Positions 4-57,365 of a stretch of DNA of 64,000 nt are shown here, one piece after another. The notes beneath the pieces were generated by a model, which was given only the letters and a program-made list of their open reading frames with translations, was not told the origin of the DNA and ran no database searches. The stretch is taken from NCBI GenBank assembly GCA_000004695.1, contig CM000153.2, positions 2,176,001 through 2,240,000 of the forward strand, given 5' to 3'. This DNA comes from Dictyostelium discoideum. Lineage: Eukaryota. Position numbers and translations under genes: made by a program. Position 1 is the first letter of the stretch. Every line of letters starts with the position of its first letter.

Positions 4-1261
4 TTAATTATTTTGTGGTGAGGTTGGAGATGATTGTTGATTTTGTTGTTGCTGTTGTTGTTGTTGTTGTTGTTGTTGTTGAACAGCAGCGGCAGCAGCA
101 GCAGCGGCAGCTTGTTGTTGTTCAGCTTTATTAACTAAAGCAATTAAAACTTCTTTAGTTTCCAATAGATCGTGTGGAATATAAAAGTTATCTCTTCTAA
201 CGGTTTCCCAAATGGTGACATCAAAGAAAAAGAAAGAACCAACCTCAAAGGTTGAGGTTATATTTGGTTCAGTACCTTGAACACGAGTTAACCATATCTT
301 TCCTTCTTTGTGATATCTCCAATCTCTATCATACAATTCGATGGCTGCATGTAATTGTAATACATCCTTTGGCATTGAATAAAATATATAAAATAGTGTT
401 TCATATGTGAATAGGTTCATCTTGAATGTTGGTGATTCTAAATTTGGTGTAGAATAACACAACGGGATATAATATTCAGGTTTTCTCGAAATTGAATAAT
501 CTACCCATGGTGATCCAAATGAATTTGATATTTCCCTAAAATAAAATTACCATGATCATTTTTTTTTTTTTTTTTAAAATATTTGATTAATATTAATATT
601 TGTTTGTTTTTTTTTTTTTTTTTTTTTTTTTGAATAAACCTATTATTATTACTATAATTTACCCTTGAGAATTTAAATTTAAACCTAACGCTGTTAAATC
701 AATACCAATGGAAAGGGTACTTATATCTAAATCTGTATTTTTAATTACACTTAATAAACCTAATAAACCATATTTTCCATTATCTTTATCAACAATATTA
801 AAATCTTTTCTTTGATATTCTTCGTGACCTTGATCATAACCTAAATGATGGTGAAGTGAATTTTCATCTGATGAAAATGTATTATTACTATTATTATTAT
901 TACTATTATTATTATTGTTATTATTACTATTATTATTATTATTATTATTAGTGTTATTATTTTGATTATTATTATTATTATTACTATTATTTTTTGATTG
1001 AGCTAAATTGAATAAATATGTATTAGTATTGATAAAATAAATATAATTAAAGTATGATAATAGGTAAGGATAGATGATGTGATGACAGATGGATGAATGA
1101 TGATTGAAAACAATAGTAATTTTGCTATTACTGCTGTTAATTAATATATTATTGTATTAATGATTGAAATTTACCATTTTTATTTGAGGTACTGCTCAGT
1201 ACGGGGAAATCGTTGTTTAAATCAAAATTATTATTATTATTGTTATTGTTATTATTATTGA

Positions 1262-1294
<33 letters not shown>

Positions 1295-1333
1295 CTTTTC
1301 CTTGTTGTTTTTGAAGAGGTGATGTGGAAGAAA

Positions 1334-1376
<43 letters not shown>

Positions 1377-1931
1377 ATTGTTATTATTATTGTTATTACT
1401 ATTATAAGGATAATTTTGCATGCCTTGTATTATTGGTCCATTGCTATTAATATTTCCTCTTTGTTGTTGTTGTTGTGTGTTTTGTTGTGCGTTATTTACA
1501 TTACCATTCATTCTTGGTATATTTTGAAGATTTGGTGAGCTGGATGTTGTTGGCGTATTTGGTGTTGATCTTGATAATGGTTGTTGAGGTTGTTGTTGTT
1601 GTTGTGGTGGTGGTGGTGGCTGCTGTGAATTCGAAGATGATATTGGTCTTCCATTATTGTTATTATTGGTATTATTGTTATTATTCATCATATTCATATT
1701 ATTTATATTGGTTGCCATATTACCTCCAGTTGGCATCCCATTGATATTACTATTATTTCCAACCCTATTATTATTAATATTACTACTATTATTGTTGTTA
1801 TTATTTTGATTTTGTCCACCCATCATATTTTGATTTTGTCCTCTAAAATTTTGCTGTTGATTTTGTTGGTTTTGATTTTGTTGTTGGTTTAAATGTTGTG
1901 GTCCTTGCCTATTTATCATTGGATTAATCAT
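4..1931 (-). CDS. CCR4-NOT complex subunit NOT2 (CNOT2)-like. Model is complement(join(4..535,663..1002,1175..1931)), with the stop at 4-6. The N-terminus may continue upstream toward the gap at 2481.
   Basis: The C-terminal exon (4..535) and middle exon (663..1002) encode a NOT2/NOT3/NOT5 NOT-box. Motifs include LGLLGLLSVIKNTDLDISTLSIGIDLTALGLNLNS, FGSPW and LFYIFYSMPKDVLQLHAAIELYDRDWRYHKEGKIWLTR, nearly colinear with human CNOT2. Intron 536..662 is GTAAAT...TTTTAG on the minus strand, and intron 1003..1174 is GTAAAT...CAATTTAG. The upstream exon is N/Q/P-rich low complexity. Confidence 0.8.
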
Positions 1932-2480
1932 TTCTGGTCCTTTATTTTCATTAATATTGTTATTTTTATTTTATTATTATTATTATTATTGGTTAGTACG
2001 GCTACAAAAAAGAGAAAAGAAGAGAAAGAAGAGAAAAATGAGTCTTACTGGATTGCAAATTAAAATTACTATAATTCATATTTGGATTTGCATAGTTTGC
2101 ATAATTCATCATTCCAGGATGAGGTTGCTGCTCATGATCAATATCATGATCATCTTTGTTATACTGAGACATTTTTTTTTTTTTTTTTTTAATATTCGAT
2201 ATTAATATTTACCCTTTTTTTTTTTTTTTTTTTTTTTTTCTTCTTTCTCTTTTCTTCTTTTTCGAATGGGAAACTATATTATGTGTAATTTAATATTTGC
2301 TTTTATGGTCAGTAACTTTTTTTTTTTATTTTTTTTTAAAAATTCTTTATTTATTTTGTTTTTTAAATTTGCTTACCTTTTTTTTTTTTTTAATTTATTT
2401 AAATTTCATTTGTTTTTTTTTTTTTTTTTTTTTTTCTTTGTTTGAAAAAAATAATTAAATAAAAAAGGTACCGAGCTGAT

Positions 2481-2580
2481 NNNNNNNNNNNNNNNNNNNN
2501 NNNNNNNNNNNNNNNNNNNNNNNNNNNNNNNNNNNNNNNNNNNNNNNNNNNNNNNNNNNNNNNNNNNNNNNNNNNNNNNN
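2481..2580. other. Assembly gap of 100 N. Identical 100-N gaps lie at 19412..19511, 24851..24950 and 45003..45102.
   Basis: Runs of n are present in the sequence. The ORF-track entries containing X (19189..19542, 19379..19576, 44940..45155, 44978..45190) are artefacts that span these gaps. Confidence 1.
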
Positions 2581-2587
2581 CTTTTGG

Positions 2588-2622
<35 letters not shown>

Positions 2623-2850
2623 AAAAATTTTTAAATTTTTTTTATTATTTTTTTTTTATTTTTTTTTTTTTTTCAAAATTGAACTCAAATTGTTTTTTTT
2701 TTTTATAATTTTTTATAATTTTTTTTTTTTGTATTATTTTTGTTATAATTATTTTTCATTTTTTTTTTTTTTTTCAAGTACCTTTTCCCCCTTTGTTCCA
2801 TTACCAATTTTAGAATTTAATTAATTAAATATATATATATTGAACTTAAA

Positions 2851-3736
<886 letters not shown>

Positions 3737-4419: not shown

Positions 4420-5240
4420 CAATATAACCAACAAGATTTTATAATGAATCAATTAAATGATATGTTAGATAGAATTGATTCATCTCAAGATTATATAAAG
4501 AATACAAAAGAATGGATAATGAATAATTGCTTCAACTCTGTTGTATTTGTTAATTTTATAACGAAAAAAGTAACAGAGATTAGTCCAGATCAAAAACTAT
4601 TCATTTTATTTTTAATTAGCGATATTTTACATTTTAGGTATGTTTTGATTTTTAATCATTTTTTTATTTATTAACAATTTAACTTTTTTTTTTTTTTAGG
4701 AAATACCAATAATTTAATTGTTCAATATATTAATAAATTTTTTTTAGTCAATTTAATAGGATAGAAGGAAGACCAGAATATTTTATACAACCTTTTTATC
4801 AAAATTTACCAATGATTTTATCAAACACATATTATATAATAAATCAACCAATGAGAGATCAAGTTAATAATGTAAATATATCCTATCATTAATATATAAT
4901 ATATATTATTATTATTTGAATTATTAATTTTTAATTTTTTAAAAAAAAAAAAAAAAAAAAAAAACAGATTTTAAATTTATGGATAGAAAGAAATATTTAT
5001 ACAAAGAGTGAAGTTGAGGAATTAAAAAAATATTTAAAAAAATCACCACCACCTGGAGTTGCAATTACACCAGGTGTTACAGTTTCTCATATTCGTTTAT
5101 CACTAGATGTTACATTACCATTGAATTCACAAGATATTGACTATTATCATTTATATAATTTTGATAGATCTGAAAATAATACTCCACTTTATAATTCTAT
5201 AGATCATTTTTATAAAACAATTTACAAAGAAACACAATAA
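4042..5240 (+). CDS. CID (RPR) domain protein of the Rtt103/RPRD1/Pcf11 type, with a poly-Asn N-terminal linker. Model is join(4042..4637,4760..4871,4968..5240).
   Basis: After an N-rich tract the protein reads IKNTKEWIMNNCFNSVVFVNFITKKVTEISPDQKLFILFLISDILHF, then (exon 3) ILNLWIERNIYTKSEVEELKKYL. This matches the CID-domain consensus (TxWI...LYLaNDVlQ...vLniWeeRgifs). Introns are GTATGT...TTAATAG (4638..4759) and GTAAAT...AAACAG (4872..4967). The phases are consistent and the stop is at 5238-5240. Confidence 0.75.
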
Positions 5241-41243: not shown

Positions 41244-43372
41244 TAAATTTGAAAAAATTGTTTAAATAAATTAATAAAAAAAAAAAAAAAAAAATAAAGA
41301 ATTAAAAAATTTTTTTTCTAAAAAAAATATAAAATATTTCATTTTTAATTTTATTTTCTTTATAAAACCTAAAAAAAGTACTTTTTAAATTATTTTATTT
41401 TATTTATTTATTTTTTTTTTTATATTATTGCCATTTTTTCTAAGGAGGTTCGAGAAAAGGTTTGTCTTAGGAATTTTTAATTTTTTTAAATATAAAATTA
41501 TTAATTTGGTTTAGATTTAAATACAAATAATATTTTAGTTTAGTTTATCTAATAAAGAATTTTGATTTTTTTAAAAAAGAAGATGTTATTATTAATTAGT
41601 TGGAAAAAAAAAAAAAAAAAAAAAAAACACAAAAAGACAAAAAAAAAAAATTTTAAAACAACATTCTATATTAAATAAAGAACAAATGAAAGATAAAAGT
41701 AGTTTTATGTATTTGTTTTTTTTTTTTTTTTTTTTTTATCTATTTTTAATCACTTTAGAGTTTAAAAATTAATACATATTAAATGATTAAAATAAATATA
41801 TGATTGTGTTTGATTAGATTAATTGGTCTAAGGAGATTAGATTAGGAAATACCGATTCTAGAATGCTATACCTTGCAAGTTAACCTTTTTAATTTAATAA
41901 TTTGTTTGGGTTTTTAAAATTATTTGGATCTTTTGAAAGAGTTCTTTTGCTATTAGCAAAGGTTCTAGATAGGTCATAATTTAAACATTTGTATCCCCAT
42001 TCAAAATATTCTTTAAGGAATATTAGCATTATCTATGTTAACCTCATGGTCTTTTTTCATATTTGGTGGAATTATAGGTGTAATTCTGTTAAAGCATTTA
42101 TTGTTTTTGTATCTAATCCTTTTGTGGGTCCAAAATTTGCCACCACCACCTGTTGCGATGTATATGAAATTTTTCAAAATTTTACAAATTCTAATGTTTT
42201 TTTGTACATTTAAAGAAGATATGGCCATAAGGATGTTACCAAGGTCTTCTTTACATAAAGTACAAGGTTTATTATGAAGATAGTTTAGTAGTAAACATCA
42301 TGCATGAAATCTAAACATTGTATCTTTGTTTTAGGATTGAGTATTGATTGACGAAATTAGGTTTTTGGAATGTTTGAATCTTGTATGTGAATTTCGTTAT
42401 ACCATTCTGCCAGTGATAGAGGTTGATTATTTTTGTTTTTAATTGATGGGGAAGGAGTAAATATTGCTCTTTTCTTTCTTATTATCCCAATTTTCCAGAT
42501 TGTGGTTTAAGATATAGGTTTTAGTCTTTATTGTCGAACTTGACGATTTCCACAGGATTAAATACTATTAAGAATTTATGGCATTTTTCTGTATATGATG
42601 ATAGAAACAATTTTTTTTTTTATTGATTGTTTATTTTTTTTTTTTTTTTTTTTTAGATATTAATTAATTTTTTACTTGATCTTTAGTAACAATAAGTGTT
42701 TATTAGATTTTATATTTTTATATATTTTTTATTGATTGTTTTTTTTTTTTTTTTAAGTCTTTTTACATGAAAAATGAAATAATCAAAAAAAGAGGTTGTT
42801 GTGGTTGTTGTTGTTGTAGATCATTTTTATCTATCTGATTATTTTTAATTAAAAATCAAGTTAGTCAGAAAATTTCCAAATTTTTAACTTTTTTTTAAAA
42901 AAAAGAAAATAAGATGAATATTATAAATAATACCATAAATATTTATATTTATAAAAATATTTTTTATTTATTTTTCCTTTTTTTTATTCTTCCTTTTTTT
43001 TTTATTTTTCCTTTTTTTTTATTCTTAATTTTTTAAACAATAAATCTTAGCAACTAAAACCTTATTAAAATTGTTTTTTTTTTATTTTTATTTTTATTTT
43101 TTTTTTTAATTTCTTAATATATTTTTTTTGATTTAAGTGTGTTTTGTTATAAACAAATAACAAAAGTGTTCATAATTGTTTAATTTCTCTCTCTCTTTAA
43201 AAAATTCTAAGGTTTATTCAATAAACTTTATTTAAAAAAGGGATTTATATGGCCATATATTTTCGTAAACCACTTTTAAATTCTTTTTTCTATATTTTTT
43301 TTAATAGTAAAATTAAATTTGCTTATTTTTTTTTTTTATTTTTTTTTATATTTTTTTTTAATCACTTTTTTA

Positions 43373-43407
<35 letters not shown>

Positions 43408-43803
43408 CTATCTTTAATCTTTGTTTTTGAAATAATATTATTTCATTTTATTTGTTTTAATTCTTTGGTTTGGAATGAAAAAAATTTATACTCTAATAAT
43501 TTTTCGATTATTTCCAATTTAAAATTATTTAGATTGGTCTTAAAAAGGAATGTTAGTTTTTTTTTTTTTTTCCTTTCTTTTATCAAACAAATTTCTAAAT
43601 TGGAAACTATTAGATGAATTTAATAAAAATATTTAATTGTTTTTTTTATACTTAATCTTCCCATAAATCATTGATCAACATTCGAATTATTTATAAAAAC
43701 CAACTCAAACTGAATAAAAAAAAATTAAATAAAATAAAATGAAATAAATTTTACAGATGTAATAATTATAATTTATAGATTTTTGTTTTTGTTTTTCTTT
43801 TTT

Positions 43804-43873
<70 letters not shown>

Positions 43874-44151
43874 TGGTAATATAACTTTCTCCTCTAATAT
43901 TTGATATACAAGGTCTGTGGTTATTTATGTTTTAATAATACACATATATCATCTTTTCTATTGCAAATATATATTACCAGCAAATAAATTATTAATATAA
44001 ATTGTTTTATGATCTAAAGTTGTAAATAAATTGGTAGTTGTAAAAACTTCATCTTATTTGTTGAAGATACTCTATTACTATTACTATTACAATTTTTAGA
44101 ATGATAAATAATGGCACTTGTTGAGCTCCCATGATATATATATTAAATATC

Positions 44152-44162
44152 CAGAATCGAAC
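44152..44162 (-). promoter_or_regulatory. External B box (ex-B) downstream of the tRNA-Ser gene.
   Basis: GTTCGATTCTGG on the minus strand lies ~35 bp past the tRNA 3' end. Dictyostelium tRNA genes commonly carry such a duplicated B-box-like element (consensus GGTTCGAATCC). Confidence 0.4.
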
Positions 44163-44196
44163 ATCTGATCTAAGATATTTTTCAATTATAAAATTT

Positions 44197-44277
44197 CGAC
44201 ACCTGCAGGGTTCGAACCTGCGCCTCCGAAGAGAACGCCTTAGCAGGGCGCCGCATTAACCACTTTGCTAAGGTGTC
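44197..44277 (-). tRNA. tRNA-Ser (anticodon GCU), 81 nt including the discriminator, with a long variable arm.
   Basis: On the minus strand the sequence is GACACCT-TA-GCAAAGTGGTTAATGCGG-CGCC-CTGCTAA-GGCG-TTCTCTTCGGAGGCGC-AGG-TTCGAAC-CCT-GCAGGTGTC-G. The acceptor stem is GACACCT/AGGTGTC. The A box is TAGCAAAGTGG and the B box is GGTTCGAACCC. The anticodon loop is CT-GCT-AA. The extra arm CTCTTCGGAG forms a hairpin. Confidence 0.88.
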
Positions 44278-44349
44278 ATGGAAAAATATTATGGTGATAC
44301 ACTTGGTAAAGTTGTATAAGAAGAGATTTCATTTTTCATATAAAAAAGA

Positions 44350-44382
<33 letters not shown>

Positions 44383-44385
<3 letters not shown>

Positions 44386-45790
44386 GGAACCCAAGTTAAT
44401 CAGAAAATTTCCAGATTTTTAACTTTTTAAAGAAAAATAAAAAAAATAGAAAGAAAATAAGATGAAAATCACAAACAACACCACAAATATTAAGCAACAC
44501 AAATGCCTACAAAAAATAAGCGAAATTGTGGATAAAACTCAATTAAAAAAAAAACAATTCAAATACGTCATAAACATCAATCACGAACCAGACGATAAAA
44601 TAAAAAAAGATTTAGAAAAAAGTTTGGACAAAAAAGATGTTTTAATCAAAAGTAATAATACATTCAAAATTCTCACAGACAGTATTAGTACAGTAATCTA
44701 TTTTGTAAATATGTTTGATGCAGAATTAAAAGGACAATTTATAACCACTATAAGACCAAAAAATATGTATACAGATTTTGATTGGTATAAATCACTCACA
44801 GAAATAGAATGGGTAATAGAAAATGAAGGATGTAAACTAATTAAATTAGAAATTAAAGGCGAAACTCTAATTATCAAAACAGTGAAAAGAGTCGTAGAAG
44901 AATTTGACACTATCATTGAACTAGACAATCTAACATTAATTGGACACTCCAACAAAGGATGGAGAGATCAAACCTCATTACCAGAAAATCAAGAAGAAAT
45001 CANNNNNNNNNNNNNNNNNNNNNNNNNNNNNNNNNNNNNNNNNNNNNNNNNNNNNNNNNNNNNNNNNNNNNNNNNNNNNNNNNNNNNNNNNNNNNNNNNN
45101 NNAGATTTTTAACTTTTTAAAGAAAAATATAAAAAATAGAAAGAAAATAAAATGAAAATCACAAACAACACCACAAATATTAAGCAACACAAATGCCTAC
45201 AAAAAATAAGCGAAATTGTGGATAAAACTCAATTAAAAAAAAAACAATTCAAATACGTCATAAACATCAATCACGAACCAGACGATAAAATAAAAAAAGA
45301 TTTAGAAAAAAGTTTGGACAAAAAAGATGTTTTAATCAAAAGTAATAATACAATTCAAAATTCGAAACAAAAAAAAAAAAAAAAAAAAAAAGTAAACTAA
45401 CCCCTCTTTTAGAGACCCTGTAAAAAAAAAAAAAAAAAATAAAATAAAATGAGATCTAGCATCTCAAGGAGAAGCAAATAATAATTGCGTTATCCAATTC
45501 AAAAAAAAAAAAGTTGTATAAGAAGGGGAAAAAAACAAACAACAACAACAATCTCTTTTTTTTGATTATTTCATTTTTCATATAAAAAAGACTTAAAAAA
45601 CAAATAAATAAATAAATAAACTATTTTAAAAAGCCATCTTTTTACTTTATTGTAATTTATTATTTGTTTCGTTTTGAGAATTTTGCGTAGCAAAATTTTC
45701 AAAAAAAAAGCAAAAAATAATCAGATCGAAAAAAACAAACAACAACAACAATCTCTTTTTTTGATTATTTCATTTTTCATATAAAAAAGA

Positions 45791-45837
<47 letters not shown>

Positions 45838-46300
45838 GGAACCAAGTTAATCAAAAAATTTCCAAATTTTTAACTTTTTAAAGAAAAATAAAAAAAATAG
45901 AAAGAAAATAAAATGAAAATCACAAACAACACCACAAATATTAAGCAACACAAATGCCTACAAAAAATAAGCGAAATTGTGGATAAAACTCAATTAAAAA
46001 AAAAACAATTCAAATACGTCATAAACATCAATCACGAACCAGACGATAAAATAAAAAAAGATTTAGAAAAAAGTTTGGACAAAAAAGATGTTTTAATCAA
46101 AAGTAATAATACAATTCAAAATTCGAAACAAAAAAAAAAAAAAAAAAAAAAAAAGTAAACTAACCCCTCTTTTAGAGACCCTGTAAAAAAAAAAAAAAAA
46201 TAAAATAAAATGAGATCTAGCATCTCAAGGAGAAGCAAATAATAATTGCGTTATCCAATTCAAAAAAAAAAAAGTTGTATAAGAATTTTTTTTTTTTTGA
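44383..46300 (+). mobile_element. Tandem array of three TRE5-like (tRNA-gene-targeted non-LTR retroelement) copies. Copy 1 (44383..45002) runs into the N gap. Copies 2 (45103..45860) and 3 (45861..46300) are internally deleted, with the ORF start fused to the 3' module plus oligo(A).
   Basis: Each copy starts aacctgggaacc(c)aagttaatca.aaaatttcca.atttttaactttttaaagaaaaataaaaaaaatagaaagaaaataa.ATGAAAATCACAAACAACACC... The encoded start is MKITNNTTNIKQHKCLQKISEIVDKTQLKKKQFKYVININHEPDDKIKKDLEKSLDKKDVLIKSNNT. Copies 2 and 3 then jump to ...caattcaaaattcgaaac(A)n-gtaaactaacccctcttttagagaccctgtaaaaa...gagatctagcatctcaaggagaagcaaataataattgcgttatccaattc(A)n. The array is adjacent to the 5' flank of a tRNA gene, which is the known niche of TRE5 elements. 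Family assignment is from memory of the element's architecture, not from a database search. Confidence 0.5.
44462..45002 (+). CDS. Putative retroelement ORF1 N-terminal part (180 aa read before the gap). The start is repeated at 45152 and 45913 in the truncated copies.
   Basis: The ORF reads MKITNNTTNIKQHKCLQ...FKILTDSISTVIYFVNMFDAELKGQFITTIRPKNMYTDFDWYKSLTEIEWVIENEGCKLIKLEIKGETLIIKTVKRVVEEFDTIIELDNLTLIGHSNKGWRDQTSLPENQEEI and is continuous into the N gap. It has no homopolymer bias, unlike the surrounding DNA. Confidence 0.4.
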
Positions 46301-46480
46301 ATTGGTTTAAAGGTGTCATAGAATACCAAATGGATGAAACACTTTGCAAAGGTGTCATCGAAAAATATTTGGGTGATACACTTAGCTAAGGTGTCATTGA
46401 AAAATATTTGGGTGATACACTTTGCTAAGGTGTCCACATAAATATTTGGGTGAAAATTTTGCTCAGGTGTAATTTAAAAC
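46300..46480 (-). repeat. About 4.5 tandem units of a ~40-bp repeat, read on the minus strand as GACACCTTAGCAAAGTGTATCACCCAAATATTTTTCAATGA. Each unit reproduces the first 17 nt of the tRNA-Ser gene (including the A box) plus its 5' flank.
   Basis: On the plus strand: aaggtgtcatagaataccaaatggatgaaacactttgc / aaaggtgtcatcgaaaaatatttgggtgatacacttagct / aaggtgtcattgaaaaatatttgggtgatacactttgct / aaggtgtccacataaatatttgggtgaaaattttgctc / aggtgtaa... The array lies immediately 3' of the last element copy. Confidence 0.85.
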
Positions 46481-47099
46481 TATTTGTAAGGGAAGTGGTA
46501 TACTCTAGAAGGTCTTATAAGTTAATTATTATATTTATATTTAGTTTATATTTATATTTTGTTTTATTTATTTTTCACTTGAAAAAAAAAGTTACCAAAA
46601 AATTAAAATGAAAAAAAAAAAATAATAAAAATAAAAGTTATTATAAATGAAACTTATTATAAATAAAAAAAAACATATTTTATTAAAATATGAAAAAAAA
46701 AAATAAGAAAATATAAAAAATAAATTTTATTTTAACGGTTTATATTTTTTTTTTAAATAATAATAAAATTATTAATAAATAAGATTAATTATAAAAAATG
46801 TAATTTTTATTATTTCTATAAAAAAAAAGTGTCATTTTTTAAAATTGATAACATACAAAAAAATCTATATCATAAAAATATTTTTTATATTATAAACATC
46901 TATTTTAGAATTACACTTTTTCTTTTACCAAAATCTGTAATAATTTTTTTAATAAAATGTATTTAAATAAAAATTTTTTTTTTTTTTTTTAAAATGCATA
47001 ATTTTTAAATTTAATTATTTATTTGTTTGATAAAACCTTTTAAATTTTTTTTAACAATTTTTTTTTTACAAGTAAAATTTATAATAATGCCAAGATATA

Positions 47100-49310
<2,211 letters not shown>

Positions 49311-49961
49311 AAAAATAATAAAACTTTATTTAAATATTATTTTTGATTTTAATTTTTTTTTTTTTTTTTATTTTTTTATTTATTTTTTATTTTTTTATTT
49401 TATTTTTTATTTAATTTTATTTAATTTAACTATCTTTTTATAAAAAAAAAAACTACGGATAAATTTTTTAAAAAAAATGGATATTTATTTTAAAAAAATT
49501 GGATATAAGTGAAAAATATAAGGATGGAGATGGATATACAAAAAAACACCTTTTATCCAAAAGTTGGATAAAGGCAAAACACTAGGCAAGATCGGTAAAA
49601 ATATCTTGTAAATTACTAACTTGTTGGTATTCAAGCCACCTTCGTTTGTTTCATTTGTCCCATGCGAAAATTACCATATTAATTTCAGCATCGAGTTTTT
49701 TATTATTATTTTTAATTCTTTTATATCTGAGATGATTATTATTAATTAAATGAGAGTTTTTTTTTTTTTTTTTATACCCAAAATTACCATATTAATTTCA
49801 GCACGAACATTGAGAAATGTTTAACATTAGCCCTTTTTTATATTTTCATTTATTTATAATTTTTCATATATTAATTTTATTATTTTTTTTATTTATTTTT
49901 ATTTATTTTTATTTATTTGATTTTCAACTAAATATAAATGTAAAATTATTAGTTATAGTTA

Positions 49962-49998
<37 letters not shown>

Positions 49999-50017
49999 AA
50001 TATTAGTTATAGTTATT

Positions 50018-50052
<35 letters not shown>

Positions 50053-50529
50053 TAATTGACTAAAAATTTTTGAACCTCTATTGAAATAAACTATAATTAA
50101 AAATAAAAATGGTATGCTAAGGATTTATTATTTTAATTTGTTAACAAAAAAAAAAAAAAAAAAAAGATGGTATAGAAAATAAAAATAAATAAACAAAAAT
50201 AAAAATGAATAATAAAAAATACTACATACATTAGGTTTTTACAAAGTCGTAAACAATATATTCATATTTTCTAACCATAAGTTTAAATAAACTAAGGTAA
50301 AATGTACATTATTTAATTAAAAAAAAAAAAAAAAAATTAAAAAAAAGTTTTTATTTTTTATTTTTTTTTTTATTTTTTTTTTAAAACGAACTTGTTATTT
50401 TAAAAAAATAATTTAAAGTCAATGTGATATATGAAATAAAAAAAGACTTGAGATCAGCAGACCATTTGGTCAAATTTAAAAAAAAAAAAACCTTTGGAAT
50501 GAGTTTGGTAATTTTTTTTTTTTTTATGG

Positions 50530-50860
50530 CAGCCCTTTTTTGATGACAGCTTAGCAAATTATATCACCCAGATATTTTTCGATGACACCTTAGCAAAGTA
50601 TATCACCCAAATATTTTTAGATGACAGCTTAGCAAAGTGTTTCACCAATATATTTTTCGTTCACACTTAGCAAAGTGTATCACCCATTGGTATTCGATGA
50701 CAGCTTAGCAAAGTGAATCACCCATTTGGTATTCGATGACACCTTAGCAAAGTGTATCACCCAAATATTTTTCGATGACAGCTTAGCAAAGTGTTTCACC
50801 AAAATATTTTTCGATGACACCTTAGCAAAGTGTATCACCCATTTGGTATTCGATGACTTT
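50530..50860 (+). repeat. About 8 tandem units of the same ~40-bp tRNA-5'-end-derived repeat (plus-strand orientation, the same as the right-hand tRNA-Ser).
   Basis: The units read cttagcaaattatatcacccagatatttttcgatgaca / ccttagcaaagtatatcacccaaatatttttagatgaca / gcttagcaaagtgtttcaccaatatatttttcgttcaca / cttagcaaagtgtatcacccattggtattcgatgaca / gcttagcaaagtgaatcacccatttggtattcgatgaca / ccttagcaaagtgtatcacccaaatatttttcgatgaca / gcttagcaaagtgtttcaccaaaatatttttcgatgaca / ccttagcaaagtgtatcacccatttggtattcgatgac. Confidence 0.88.
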
Positions 50861-50879
50861 TTTTTTTTTTTTTAATAAC

Positions 50880-51590
50880 ATCACTCGATTTGGTATTCGA
50901 TGACAGTTTTTTTTTGAATTGGATAACGCAATTATTAGTTGCTTCTCCTTGAGATGCTAGATTTAATTTATAGTTTTTTACAGGGTCTCTAAAAGAGGGG
51001 TTAGTTTATTTTTTTTTTATTTTTTTTTTTTTGTTTCGAATTTTGAATTGTATAATTACTTTTGATTAAATCATCTTTTTTATCCAAATTTTTTTCTAAA
51101 TCTTTTTTTATTTTATCATCAGCCGACAGTATGGCGGGTCTTGAAGTTGATGGTGTGATGACTACCAAACCTCCACTCATACTATCGGTGAAACCTTAAG
51201 CCACTTTCGTGACCGACACTCGCTCTCATCTCTCGAGCCACTCACTCGCCATTCGTCTTTATATATATTTTTACTTTTATCGACTTACTTTGTGTGAGCG
51301 CGAGAGGCACCAGCCTCCTTCCAGTTACTTGAAGTGTCTCGCCAGTGTGCCACACGTTTACTGTTGCAGTGACTGACTAACCAACGGCTTCGCTTGTGCA
51401 CCGGGGTAACCTGTCGGCCGTTGTGCCGTCGGATGGTTTTTGGAAGCTACCTCCCCAGATTCATTTCGGAGTTTTTTGGTTGCGATACTTATTGGTCAGG
51501 TTATACATGTCGAGGAGATTTTGCTTTAACCCATCAATATGAGTGTATATTACTTCCTTCTCTTGATCTGGGTCCTCTATGTGTATTCGA
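50880..51590 (-). mobile_element. Inverted partial TRE5-like element in minus orientation. The GC-rich 5' module (51121..51590) is joined to the ORF1 fragment (...DDKIKKDLEK...) and to the 3' module plus oligo(A) (50880..51060). Its 5' end lies ~45 bp upstream of the right-hand tRNA-Ser.
   Basis: The reverse complement of 50880-51120 matches the left-arm copies: ggataaaaaagatgatttaatcaaaagtaattatacaattcaaaattcgaaac(A)n..taaactaacccctcttttagagaccctgtaaaaaa...atctagcatctcaaggagaagcaactaataattgcgttatccaattcaaaa. 51121-51590 is an atypically GC-rich (~50%) non-coding block (agccgacagtatggcgggtcttgaagttgatggtgtgatgactacc...ccggggtaacctgtcggccgttgtgccgtcgg...). That block is absent from the left-arm copies. 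Confidence 0.5.
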
Positions 51591-51630
51591 TGACAGCTTA
51601 GCAAAGTGTATCACCCATTTGGTATTCGAC

Positions 51631-51711
51631 GACACCTTAGCAAAGTGGTTAATGCGGCGCCCTGCTAAGGCGTTCTCTTCGGAGGCGCAGGTTCGAACCC
51701 TGCAGGTGTCG
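51631..51711 (+). tRNA. tRNA-Ser (anticodon GCU), identical in sequence to the copy at complement(44197..44277).
   Basis: The same 81-nt sequence GACACCTTAGCAAAGTGGTTAATGCGGCGCCCTGCTAAGGCGTTCTCTTCGGAGGCGCAGGTTCGAACCCTGCAGGTGTCG occurs on the plus strand. Confidence 0.88.
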
Positions 51712-51743
51712 ATACTTTCGAAAAAAAAAAACTAATGAGCGCT

Positions 51744-51754
51744 GGTTCGAATCT
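51744..51754 (+). promoter_or_regulatory. External B box downstream of the tRNA-Ser gene.
   Basis: GGTTCGAATCT lies 33 bp past the tRNA 3' end. Confidence 0.45.
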
Positions 51755-52340
51755 CTTTGAGATGAATATTGAAGTAAATATTTAAAAAAAAAAAAATAAA
51801 GATTAAATAACAAAAAAATCTTTATTTATATAAATTTTTAAATACCAAATTTAAATTTATTGTTTAGGATATTAAATTACACAAACAATGGGGAATTTAA
51901 TATCCCAAAAAATATCCCAAAAATAATTGATATTTTTTTTTTACAAAAATCTTTATATTATTTTTTTTAAAAAAATCTTTTTCAAATCAAAACATTAAAA
52001 AAAAAAAAAATATATTATATTTTTATATTTTTCTTATTTTTTTATTTTTTTTTTTATGTTTTGGGTTGAAAAAATATCTAAATGATCCACAAAAATAACT
52101 TGATTTGAAAAATGAAATCTAAATTAAAAATTTTGGGTTTAAAATTGCGCAATAATTATTTTAAAAAAGATTTTTTTTAATTTATTGAATTAAAACAAAA
52201 TATCCTTTTTTTTAAGTACACAAACAATTATTTTTTTTTTTTTAATTTGATTTTTTTAATTTGATTTTTTTTTTTTTTTTTAAAAAAATATTAATACACT
52301 GTAAAACTTTTTTTTTTTTTTTTTTTTTTTTATTTTAAAA

Positions 52341-52799
52341 ATGAAATATATAATAAATAATTTTATTTTTTTGACATTTTTTTTATTAATTTATTTTTTT
52401 AGTAAAAACAATGGCCAAACTTTAATTGACATTTCAAGTAATGATATAAATACCTATAATAAATACTTAATAGACAGGAATTGTTTTTTCACTATTATTG
52501 TTTTATCATCAGATCCAATCATGTATGTAGAACCAGTAGGTGATTTTATTGAGAGTTGGGGATACATTGAAAAATTAAGTAACTCTTCACACTATATTTA
52601 TTCTTTGGATATCTCTACAATAAAAGGTCAACTCCCAATATTAATTGGAAATGGTTTATTAAACATTAGTTTGGATTTAAATTGTTTTGGTAATTAAAAT
52701 TTTTTTAAAAAAATATATATATTTAATATTTATTTTAATTACATTATATTACAAACTCTATATATATATATTTTTTTTTTTAATAATTACTAATTTTTC

Positions 52800-52833
<34 letters not shown>

Positions 52834-53209
52834 GTTTTGGAAACAAATGTTGAAATTGTTTCATTACCAAATTATTATTCAAAAAGGTTACCATTAGCAC
52901 CATTGAATATGTTTTTATTTAAAGGTTTAAAGTATTATTTAAGAAATTTTCCAGAGGAATATATAACTGGGTTTACTCCAATAGCATTTAACTCATTTCC
53001 AATAACTGGTGATTTATATGGAGGTGGATTTTCAATTCAATTACAATTATTTGAAAACAATTTACCAATTTTAATTGATTATAATATAACTTCAAATTTT
53101 ATATGTAAGTATTTAAAAAAAATAATTTAAAATAAAAAAAATTAAATTTTAAAAAAAAAAAAAAAAAAAAAAAAATTAAAAAAAATTATAAAAAATTTAA
53201 TTAAATAAT

Positions 53210-54671: not shown

Positions 54672-57365
54672 AAATTATTAATTTTAAAAAATTTAAAATT
54701 CTTAGATGTTGACATTTATTCTGTTTCAAATATTGAATATTTATTTAATGATGTTGATATTACAAATAGTTCTATTTCAAATATAATTTATTTTAATTTT
54801 TCAAATCAAAATGTTCAATTAAATAGACCAATGGCATTAGTTTTATTAGATAGAGTTTCAATAAATAATTTAAAAAATACAGATGTAGATGAACAAATTG
54901 GTACTAGTAAATTATTTTATTCTAAATGGAATTCAACAAAGAAAATGTTTCAAATTGAATTTACAATTCCTGCAAATACTCAATCAGGAATTTTACCATG
55001 GTATATTGCATTCTCAAGTGAAACTTTAATTAATGATAGATCTACTCATCGTCCTGGCTTTGCTAAATTATCTTCACCTATTTTTAATTCTAATAATGAG
55101 TTAGATCCTACAAGACTTTATAGTTCATTCTTAAAATCATCTGATCAATTATATGTTAAAACTGATAACTTTGATGCCTATGGACCAATCTTTTCAAATA
55201 TTACTACAATTGTTGAAAAAGATTATGTTGGTTGGATTTTAACAATTTCTGATTCAATTAATGGATTTAGTTATGGTGATATAACTGTAAGAGGTGAAAA
55301 AGATAGTTCAATTTATAATTTTCATTTAACACCTTCAAATGCTTTGGGAAATAGTGATAAATGGAATTCAAATTATCAATTAATTATAAATTTAAATTCA
55401 AACTTTTGTATTAATCAAACCTATATAATTACAAAAGTAAAATTATTTGATACTCAAGGAAATAGAGCATCATTTTCAGTTTCTGGTTCAATTGTTGAAC
55501 CACTTGAAAATCCATTTATAAACTTTCTTAATAATCCAGATATTTTAAAGGTTGAATATAATTGTATTTCTTCTTTATCAGATATTGATGGTCCAGAATT
55601 ATATAGTTTTGATGTTATTCAAACAGGTTCAATATTTGAATTTTTTTTTTCAGCAATTGATCAACAAAGTGGATTAAAACCAAATCAAAGACCAATTGTT
55701 TATTTATCAACTTATCAATTACAAACTCTACAATGTATTTCAGAAATTTCATTCTTAAATGAAACATTTTCAAATTATTCTTGTTCAATTGAAATACCAT
55801 ATGGATTTGGTTTTGTTCAAGGTGGTGAATATATTGTTTCAGTTTATGGTTTCATTAATAATGCTGGTTACTATTCTGGATTTTCAACTGAAACTTTATA
55901 TTCTTTAGGATATAATTGTATTTTTGATTCTATTAAACCTCAACCAAGATTATTAATAACTGGAACAAGTTCTTTTAATGAAAATAGTAATGAACTTTGG
56001 ATATTTGGTGGTGAATTTAATATTCCAACAGTTAGTTTTCAAAATGTTTCAATCGTTTATTCAAATGGTGAAAAATATATTCTTTCAATTCAAAAGTCAT
56101 ATTCATCATCAATTTTAATTAATGAAATAAAACCAACTAGTGAATCATTTACTGTCCAAGTTATATTTTATGATGAATTTAATAATGCTATAAATGAATC
56201 AAATATTTATACAGTTAAACCAATTAAATTAAATTTTATTCAACCAAAACCAATTCCAATTCCAAATAATCCAACTGTTGAATGTAAGGGAAATCCAGAA
56301 TGTGGTGGTGATAAAAATGGTTATTGTTCAAAATCAGTTGGATGTATTTGTTATTCACCATGGGTTGGTTTAGATTGTTCATCAAAGGTGATTATTATAC
56401 CAACACCAACACTTAATAAATCAGAACCAACTTTTGAAATTCCAATTTTAGATAATCAAGATGATAATACTGATGATTTTTTATATAAATCATTAATTTC
56501 AATTGTATCATTAAGAGAATTAGATTTTAATTTAAATATTGTAAATTATTATACATTTAATAATAAATGGAATGTTACAAAAATTAATTCATACACCAAT
56601 CAATACAAAACAGATATAATTGTTTCACCATCAATTTTATCAAATAATCAAGAAACCACTACAACAATAATTGTAACTTTACAATGGTTTAAAGATAGTA
56701 TGGATATTACATTTGCAAATCAAAAATTAAATATGAAAGCATCAAGTATAAAATATACAATTGAAATTTCAAATTATCAATTTAAAAGTAAACTTAATCA
56801 ACTTCAATTAATTTTATCAGCATCATTTAAATCATCAAATACTGAAGGAATTTGTTCAAATAAAGATTTTGGTGATACAACTTCAACTGATAATTCAAAT
56901 TATATGAAAATTCAAATTGGTGATCGTTCATTATATGGTAGGTTTATTAAAAGAGCAATTATTGATAAATTAATTAAAAGTGTTCAAAATGAAATTATAA
57001 ATGAAACAACATTAAATAATTATGAAAAACAACTAATAACTGAAAGAAGTGCATCATCAGATTATTCATTCATTGGAATTACAATTCCATACTATCGTGA
57101 AAATATAATTCTTGATCCTGATTTTTCAATTCTTTTAGATTCTTTTAAAGTTTCAAAATCTGATCAAGGTTCAATTTGTAATGGTGAAGGTACTGATCCT
57201 TCAATTAAATCTGGTTTATCAAATGGTCAAATTGCTGGTATAATCATTGGTGCTATTGGTTTTGCAACTGTTATAGTAATCAGTGTTATTTATCATTTTT
57301 GGAAAAATAAAAGAGATTCAAAATTTAATAGTCAAATGCAAAATAAATTAAAAGAAATAAAATAA
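52341..57365 (+). CDS. Large secreted-type / type-I membrane glycoprotein of about 1430 aa. It has a signal peptide, a long N-glycosylation-rich ectodomain, one EGF-like module, a single TM helix and a short basic tail. Model is join(52341..52689,52835..53104,53333..53647,53767..54084,54248..54631,54706..57365). The exon-3 acceptor is alternatively at 53351.
   Basis: The N-terminus is MKYIINNFIFLTFFLLIYFFSKNNGQ, a signal peptide. Six exons are joined by phase-1 introns (GTAATT/GTAAGT/GTAAAT/GTATTT ... AG), and each exon boundary preserves the ORF-track frames. The last exon has CKGNPECGGDKNGYCSKSVGCICYSPWVGLDCS (EGF-like), then ...SGLSNGQIAGIIIGAIGFATVIVISVIYHFWKNKRDSKF (TM plus stop-transfer). 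There are many NxS/T sequons. I cannot assign it to a named family. Confidence 0.65.

Follow-up and report, generated by a model that had tools for sequence, protein, structure and literature searches.

How did an array of short repeats that reproduce the beginning of a tRNA gene come to lie next to that gene, and does it do anything there? The question is raised by positions 50530-50860 of a 64,000-nucleotide stretch of the Dictyostelium discoideum AX4 genome (the window), where a sequence-only reading had described about eight units that begin with a tRNA 5' end and share the orientation of the tRNA on their right. Tandem Repeats Finder (TRF) placed a repeat at 50536-50841 (period 39, 7.9 copies, 84% matches), and the 19-mer core TTAGCAAAGTGTATCACCC (<=3 mismatches allowed) matched 12 times in the 64-kb window against 0.00 matches expected from 100 shuffles, all 12 within the two arms of the locus. 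The array at 50530-50860 is thus real. It consists of eight head-to-tail units, R1-R8, each corresponding to positions -22 to +17 of the tRNA-Ser(GCU) gene on its right and oriented as that gene is, which bears out the description of the units as beginning with the tRNA 5' end: GACA[C/G]CTTAGCAAAGTG matches tRNA +1 to +17 and is followed by a 22-nt spacer that matches tRNA -22 to -1. Seven of the eight units are 39 bp long and R4 is 37 bp, with start-to-start spacings of 39, 39, 38-39, 37-38, 39, 39 and 39; head-to-tail units of this length lie in the 10-100 bp range of minisatellites (VNTRs). A ninth unit, R9, adjoins the tRNA and is 95% identical to both R5 and R8. A probe from the tRNA 3' end gave one match per gene, and the repeated part of the tRNA is its 5' 17 nt only. 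The coordinates of the features are given in the Table.

Table. Features of the two arms of the tRNA-Ser(GCU) locus, in window coordinates.
Feature	Position	Strand	Evidence or description
Right-arm array R1-R8	50545-50854	+	TRF, unit table, identity matrix, core-motif count
Partial degenerate unit tail	50536-50544		precedes R1
Unit R9, tRNA-proximal	51592-51630	+	GACAGC...GGTATTCGAC; adjoins tRNA, between retroelement and tRNA
tRNA-Ser(GCU), right, intact	51631-51711	+	ARAGORN; Rfam RF00005, 61.1 bits; box scan
16-bp target-site duplication, distal copy	50842-50857		TTTGGTATTCGATGAC; last 13 nt of R8 plus GAC
31-bp retroelement tip	50858-50888	-	oligo(A)16 plus 15 nt, TCGAGTGATGTTATT (minus); T16 plus AATAACATCACTCGA (plus)
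16-bp target-site duplication, proximal copy	50889-50904		TTTGGTATTCGATGAC; exact match to distal copy
TRE5-A-type target-site duplication, distal copy	50893-50906		(G)TATTCGATGACAG
TRE5-A-type non-LTR retrotransposon, 0.68 kb, internally deleted	50907-51582	-	
0.68-kb element, oligo(A)9	50907-50915		T9 on plus
0.68-kb element, C-module-like 3' end	~50916-51040		
0.68-kb element, B-module/ORF1 fragment	to 51120		
0.68-kb element, GC-rich 5' part	51121-51582		
TRE5-A-type target-site duplication, proximal copy	51583-51596		(G)TATTCGATGACAG
tRNA-Ser(GCU), left	44197-44277	-	sequence identical to right copy; genes divergent
Degenerate tRNA-proximal left-arm unit	44278-44316	-	TACAACTTTACCAAGTG + tatcaccataatatttttccat
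Left-arm TRE5-A cluster	44324-46273	+	5' end at -47 from left tRNA
Left-arm array, mirror orientation	46309-46486	-	TRF: period 39, 4.6 copies

The units are less uniform than had been thought. The count of about eight stood, and the description of them as near-identical proved generous, pairwise identity among R1-R8 ranging from 77 to 95%. Six of R1-R8 have a full GACAGC or GACACC start; the start of R4 is degraded to CACAC, with one base lost and the expected C present directly before TTAGC. The alternation of variants between adjacent units was upheld for a G/C at unit position 5 in 7 of the 8 units and not for the GTGTTTCACC variant, which is restricted to R3 and R7. An ~80-bp dimer, which had been put forward as the unit of duplication, did not survive: mean unit identity was 81.6% at lag 2, lower than the 84.6% at lag 1 and the 90.4% at lag 4. 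R2 and R6 are 95% identical, as are R3 and R7, and R4 and R8 are 92% identical; moreover, repeat family D6, with an offset of ~154 bp, agrees with block duplication of about 155 bp. Thus, the last amplification in AX4 involved a block of about four units, R2-R4 resembling R6-R8, rather than an 80-bp dimer.

The right tRNA-Ser(GCU), with +1 at 51631, a full A box TAGCAAAGTGG at 51638 and a B box GGTTCGAACCC at 51690, is the parent of the repeated 5' segment. In both tRNA-Ser genes the A box and the B box are full, and a B-box-like sequence lies ~35 bp downstream of each tRNA (GTTCGAATC at 51745-51753 on the plus strand and GTTCGATTC at 44154-44162 on the minus strand). Dictyostelium tRNA genes are known to have such 'external B boxes', which we take GTTCGAATC and GTTCGATTC to resemble. 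The tRNA 3' flanks are otherwise unrelated, so the similarity between the arms ends at the tRNA 3' end. The mirror-image array claimed for the other arm was recovered by TRF on the minus strand; R6-R8 and its three proximal units show 93% complementarity (inverted repeat I4, 46315-46434 versus 50738-50857). In total, AX4 carries 9 units in the right arm and about 6.6 in the left.

We also analyzed the sequences that interrupt the right-arm array. The sequence-only reading had placed there an inverted tRNA-targeting retroelement that leaves one unit beside the tRNA, and a 0.68-kb TRE5-A-type element does lie between R1-R8 and R9. Its 5' end faces the tRNA at -48/-49, in agreement with the published integration of TRE5-A 47+/-3 bp upstream from tRNA genes, the 5' end facing the tRNA (PMC5391098). 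The element has a 3' C-module, an oligo(A) and a B-module, and a stretch of 160 nt is complementary, at 93%, to the B/C region of the copies in the left arm (I1, I6, I16); its assignment to the A rather than the C subfamily rests on its linkage to those left copies, which continue into an RVT_1 ORF2 in L005, a second assembly of the AX4 lineage. ORF1 plus ORF2 coding capacity is absent from the element, which retains an ORF1/B fragment of ~80 nt only and is an internally deleted, non-autonomous copy. A check of the junctions for a target-site duplication was positive: (G)TATTCGATGACAG, 13/14 bp, abuts both ends of the element and is the tied longest exact word common to the junction regions, the other tied 14-mer representing unit-to-unit similarity.

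Two parts of the earlier picture of this interruption were overturned. The array had been thought to end where the oligo(A) of the large element begins; the T16 at 50858-50873 belongs instead to a separate 31-bp tip, which lies between the two exact copies of a 16-bp duplication. Longer insertions in both arms of another D. discoideum strain, L006, end in the same 3' tip (T14 then AAT[A/G]ACCTCA...), and the one in the right arm encodes an ORF2 C-terminus that includes a zinc-finger (CCHC-like) motif and has 36% identity to TRE5-A ORF2 (E=1e-22); a Pfam search with the 166-aa ORF of this insertion gave no match, and BLASTP against TRE5-A ORF2 identified it. This right-arm L006 copy is thus a TRE, and the 31-bp insert is therefore the tip of a second TRE family, an extremely 5'-truncated ('dead-on-arrival') copy. 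Interpretation of 50855-50901 as a degenerate unit, 'R8.5', was ruled out by the exact 16-bp duplication and by the L006 homologues. A single element thus gives way to two successive insertions at one site, the 31-bp tip and then the TRE5-A-type copy. Deletion of both inserts together with one copy of each duplication brought R8 and R9 together in perfect register; ancestrally, the right arm consisted of nine units in an unbroken row, with the tRNA next. We infer that the tip inserted before the 0.68-kb copy because only then do both events lie at the canonical distance from the tRNA, and this order fits the published tendency of TREs toward TRE-TRE tandems instead of insertion into each other (PMC5391098).

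The left arm has a retroelement history of its own. Its TRE5-A cluster, whose 5' end at -47 faces the left tRNA and fits the published window as well, includes at 44462 an ORF1 fragment with 100% identity to an AX4 protein. GTTGTATAAGAAG, the target-site duplication of the left arm, lies at 44311-44323 and at 45513-45525, and its first 12 nt (GTTGTATAAGAA) recur at 46274-46285. It is thus found three times, after each TRE5-A copy, which indicates that the TRE and its duplication were themselves tandemly duplicated; the tandem came either from unequal recombination or from mis-assembly beside the adjacent gap. This gap, an N run at 45004-45103, hides most of a full-length TRE5-A according to the gap-free L005 (1-3740), where the rest of ORF1, a 1047-aa ORF2 with an RVT_1 domain and then the B and C modules are found at this position. 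Between the cluster and the array lies a near-palindrome at 46262-46305 (ccaattc A12 gttgtataagaa T13 gaattgg). Its T13+GAATTGG, at about 46286-46305 (CCAATTC A13 on the other strand), resembles a 7-nt TRE5-A 3' tip in non-canonical orientation, and a 39-nt degenerate unit fits equally well; an Rfam match to mir-2063 at this place was dismissed as chance, since it scored 27.9 bits where the gathering score is 100. A degenerate copy of the TRE5-A B-module and ORF1 start (caagttagtcagaaaatttccaaatttttaac...aagatgaa), another TRE remnant at the locus, lies at 42830-42915, about 1.3 kb downstream of the left tRNA.

The syntenic locus was taken from six assemblies (L001-L006), with the neighbouring EGF-like gene as anchor (an 844-aa ORF at 54831, 100% identical to the AX4 EGF-like-domain protein). 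L005, an independent assembly of the AX4 lineage that is 99.7% identical, has 8 plus 1 right-arm units with the same variants, and a full-length TRE5-A in place of the N gap. Arrays were also present in two further D. discoideum assemblies. In L001 (GCA_054859355.1), 3.6 right-arm units adjoin the tRNA without an element between, and the left arm has 8.9 plus 1 units; L006 (GCA_054859385.1) has 2 plus 1 units on the right, 1 plus 4 plus 1 on the left, and in each arm TRE insertion at the canonical site. Copy number therefore differs among strains as it does in VNTRs, being 9, 3.6 and 3 in the right arm and ~6.6, ~10 and 6 in the left arm of AX4, L001 and L006, respectively. No unit was found at the divergent tRNA pairs of D. 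cf. discoideum (L002) and D. citrinum (L003), or in the stretch retrieved from D. firmibasis (L004), which holds one tRNA. Comparison of strains and species thus confirms the array as real and shows that it is confined to D. discoideum sensu stricto, where its copy number varies between strains.

Variants are shared between the two arms within a strain. The ATTTGGTATTC spacer occurs in AX4 only, in both of its arms, and GTGTCTCACC is restricted to L001, where both arms have it, and L006, where the left arm alone does. The dimer pattern is present in the left arm of L001. L001 and L006 also carry a 5'-truncated TRE5-A B/C fragment with one unit distal to it and 9 (L001) or 4 (L006) units on its tRNA side. 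This arrangement is most simply explained if the fragment inserted at about -42, with one unit between, and the proximal units expanded afterwards; growth of the array on its tRNA side appears to move older insertions outward. In L002, the -22 to -1 flank tttccaccaaaaaaaatttcat is similar to the unit spacer (tttcaccaaaatatttttcgat in R7, for example) and probably orthologous to it; the region from -39 to -23 is unrelated to the tRNA. The dinucleotide TG directly precedes -22 in L002, and TG likewise ends the repeated segment at tRNA +16/+17.

The other loci contained further tRNA-adjacent sequences. Directly after the 3' end of the left tRNA, at ~4490-4562, L002 has a 16-bp tandem repeat, CCGAAAACCTTTTTT(C), which is a different tRNA-adjacent tandem repeat in a sister lineage. 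At ~8950-9030 of L002, between a TRE 5' end and the right tRNA, lies a tRNA-like fragment in reverse complement (gtgggccccgatagtgcagtggtaaagag...ggttcgataccctgttgg); it contains A- and B-box-like motifs and was not called by ARAGORN. In L001, an insertion of ~2.7 kb (~950-3660) is found upstream of the left tRNA at ~17 bp, which is the distance that DGLT-A prefers; the insertion contains a called gene at 1223-3181 (-) with retroviral-type aspartic protease domains. AX4 has been reported to lack full-length DGLT-A (PMC5006619). At a tRNA-Arg in L007, the only other tRNA locus sampled, 5' repeats were absent, and a metagenome scan for ACCTTAGCAAAGTGTNTCACC gave 0 matches. A broader, mechanistically specific process at tRNA 5' ends may act beyond this locus.

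The segment between the arms differs in orientation among strains. AX4 46801-49439 aligned in reverse orientation to L001 7124-4476, and AX4 46887-49408 likewise to L006 6777-4371, whereas the outer flanks and both tRNAs are collinear across the three. Thus, the AX4 lineage differs from the two other strains by an inversion between the arms. The inverted segment of ~3 kb (window 46801-49650; AX4 and L005 versus L001 and L006) carries a fast-evolving gene, and its central coding segment was absent from the syntenic loci of L002, L003 and L004. One end of the inverted block in L006 lies ~130 bp from the distal-most unit, and the breakpoints lie within the repeated arms, in arrays, TRE copies or tRNA genes. 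A bolder proposal is that recombination uses the inverted arrays, and not the 81-bp tRNA genes or TRE copies, as its substrate, both for variant exchange and for flipping of the ~3 kb, and that the phased A-box-only pseudo-starts may measurably shift TFIIIB placement or retroelement landing. We regard this as unlikely; if it is true, a tRNA gene has given rise to a hotspot of structural variation of its own.

Do the units themselves have a function? They could be functional Pol III-related DNA whose A-box-like starts recruit or position TFIIIC/TFIIIB, serve as a decoy 'landing pad' for TRE5 or DGLT-A, or form a chromatin boundary. Consistent with such roles, 7 of the 9 right-arm units keep TAGCAAAGTG, which has 10 of the 11 A-box bases (the next base being T), all dated insertions at the locus lie within array sequence, and the A box at +8 has been published as setting the distance of TRE5-A integration (PMC5391098). 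However, efficient TRE5-A targeting requires a B box (PMC5391098), and the box scan found none in the whole array, locating B boxes only in the two tRNAs and B-box-like sequences downstream of them. No unit has the type-2 Pol III promoter combination of A box (TRGCNNAGTGG) and B box (GGTTCGANNCC). ARAGORN and Rfam called two full tRNA genes only, with no cloverleaf inside the arrays, and an Rfam search of 43000-53000 at permissive E-values returned the two tRNAs and one chance miRNA match only. With 10 of 11 A-box bases and neither B box nor cloverleaf, the units are probably inert as Pol III genes. Folding of the array as single-stranded DNA was unremarkable (z = -1.7; 5 of 100 shuffles fold as well). 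Furthermore, every datable insertion keeps its distance from the real tRNA gene despite A-box-only copies every 39 bp: the insertions lie at about -47 from the real gene and out of phase with the upstream pseudo-starts. Distances set from the real gene agree with the dependence of TRE5-A targeting on a B box. Finally, the sister species keep the tRNA pair without the array, copy number varies from ~3 to 10 across strains and the units are decaying. A functional role for the array is therefore improbable, and most likely it has none.

Retrotransposition might instead have built the array as a by-product, either through accumulated target-site duplications or through template switching or repair at TRE endonuclease nicks. 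The tRNA 5' flanks of this genome are repeatedly nicked by the TRE machinery (PMC5391098), and the array does contain TRE insertions with their duplications, including two events at the same site. Yet the boundaries differ: the true duplications, of 13/14 and 16 bp, span about -50 to -35, whereas the 39-bp unit spans -22 to +17, includes tRNA coding sequence and is repeated in tandem with nothing between the copies, unlike a target-site duplication. Moreover, the 3.6 uninterrupted units of the L001 right arm adjoin the tRNA with no element between, and the AX4 units stand in perfect register once both insertions are taken out. These observations make an origin as a retrotransposition by-product very improbable. 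Assembly or collapse artefact in this AT-rich, low-complexity, repeat-rich region with its N gap (45004-45103, left arm) is refuted, and retains next to no probability, as L005, an independent chromosome-scale assembly, has all nine right-arm units base for base and two further strains have arrays at the same two places.

We therefore consider it likely that the array is a young, lineage-specific, copy-number-polymorphic and neutral minisatellite, its putative neutrality being suggested by the missing motifs and the variability. In the D. discoideum lineage, a segment of 39 bp that spans the 5' border of tRNA-Ser(GCU), from -22 to +17, would have been duplicated in tandem. The TG on both sides of the segment suggests replication slippage or another microhomology-mediated duplication; slippage is a tentative mechanism, based on a microhomology of 2 nt and one outgroup with a diverged flank. 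From two copies on, the array could have grown and shrunk by unequal exchange or slippage, the duplication of about four units being the most recent step in AX4. The tRNA pair predates the array and both arms carry arrays, from which we infer that the array or its variants moved between the arms; a single origin would need such transfer, and gene conversion or recombination may have carried variants from one inverted arm to the other. TREs target a point ~47 bp upstream of the real tRNA, and this point is ~8 bp inside the second unit. The right arm of AX4 received two such insertions at nearly the same nucleotide, presumably the second-family tip first and the 0.68-kb TRE5-A-type copy second, and together they separated R9 from R1-R8.

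The array indicates no new biological mechanism. It is a natural experiment, with A-box-only tRNA starts placed every 39 bp upstream of a real tRNA gene, and it offers a ready-made polymorphic marker that also flags an inversion polymorphism between laboratory and wild strains. In addition, since older insertions are apparently pushed outward, it gives a relative time-line of insertions. Neither this array nor any tandem repeat of partial tRNAs in Dictyostelium is described in the literature searched, whose coverage was incomplete, and the array may have been noted elsewhere.

Several known systems share features with the array. As in a tRNA-derived SINE, a tRNA 5' end with an A-box-like motif opens each unit; unlike SINEs, the units lack a B box, a tail, duplications around each unit and dispersed copies within the 64 kb, all copies being in tandem at the two arms. 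Satellite DNAs derived from tRNAs have been reported in plants and animals. These satellites, and the tRNA gene tandem arrays of Entamoeba (PMC2652664), which resemble the present array in having tandem units with tRNA-derived sequence, contain whole tRNA genes or tRNA-like sequences in large families, whereas the unit described here comprises only +1 to +17 and a 22-nt flank, without a B box, in ~3-10 copies at a single locus. The elements that interrupt the array share with TRE5-A targets and TRE-TRE tandems (PMC5391098, PMC3159450) their distance, orientation, oligo(A) and target-site duplication, and here too the second insertion adjoins the first instead of lying inside it; the array differs from those systems in being repetitive target DNA, neither part of a TRE nor a target-site duplication. 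The closest likeness is to minisatellites (VNTRs), with which the array shares head-to-tail 39-bp units, a strain-variable copy number of 3 to ~10 and interspersed variants, as well as, with those that have higher-order structure, the 4-unit block in AX4, the dimer pattern in the L001 left arm and homogenisation within strains. Unlike ordinary minisatellites, it forms two inverted arrays at a divergent tRNA pair, and unlike anonymous ones it has a unit that is a copy of an active tRNA gene's 5' border, and it still adjoins that gene. By kind, then, it is an ordinary minisatellite whose source is unusual and traceable: the 5' border of the adjoining tRNA gene.
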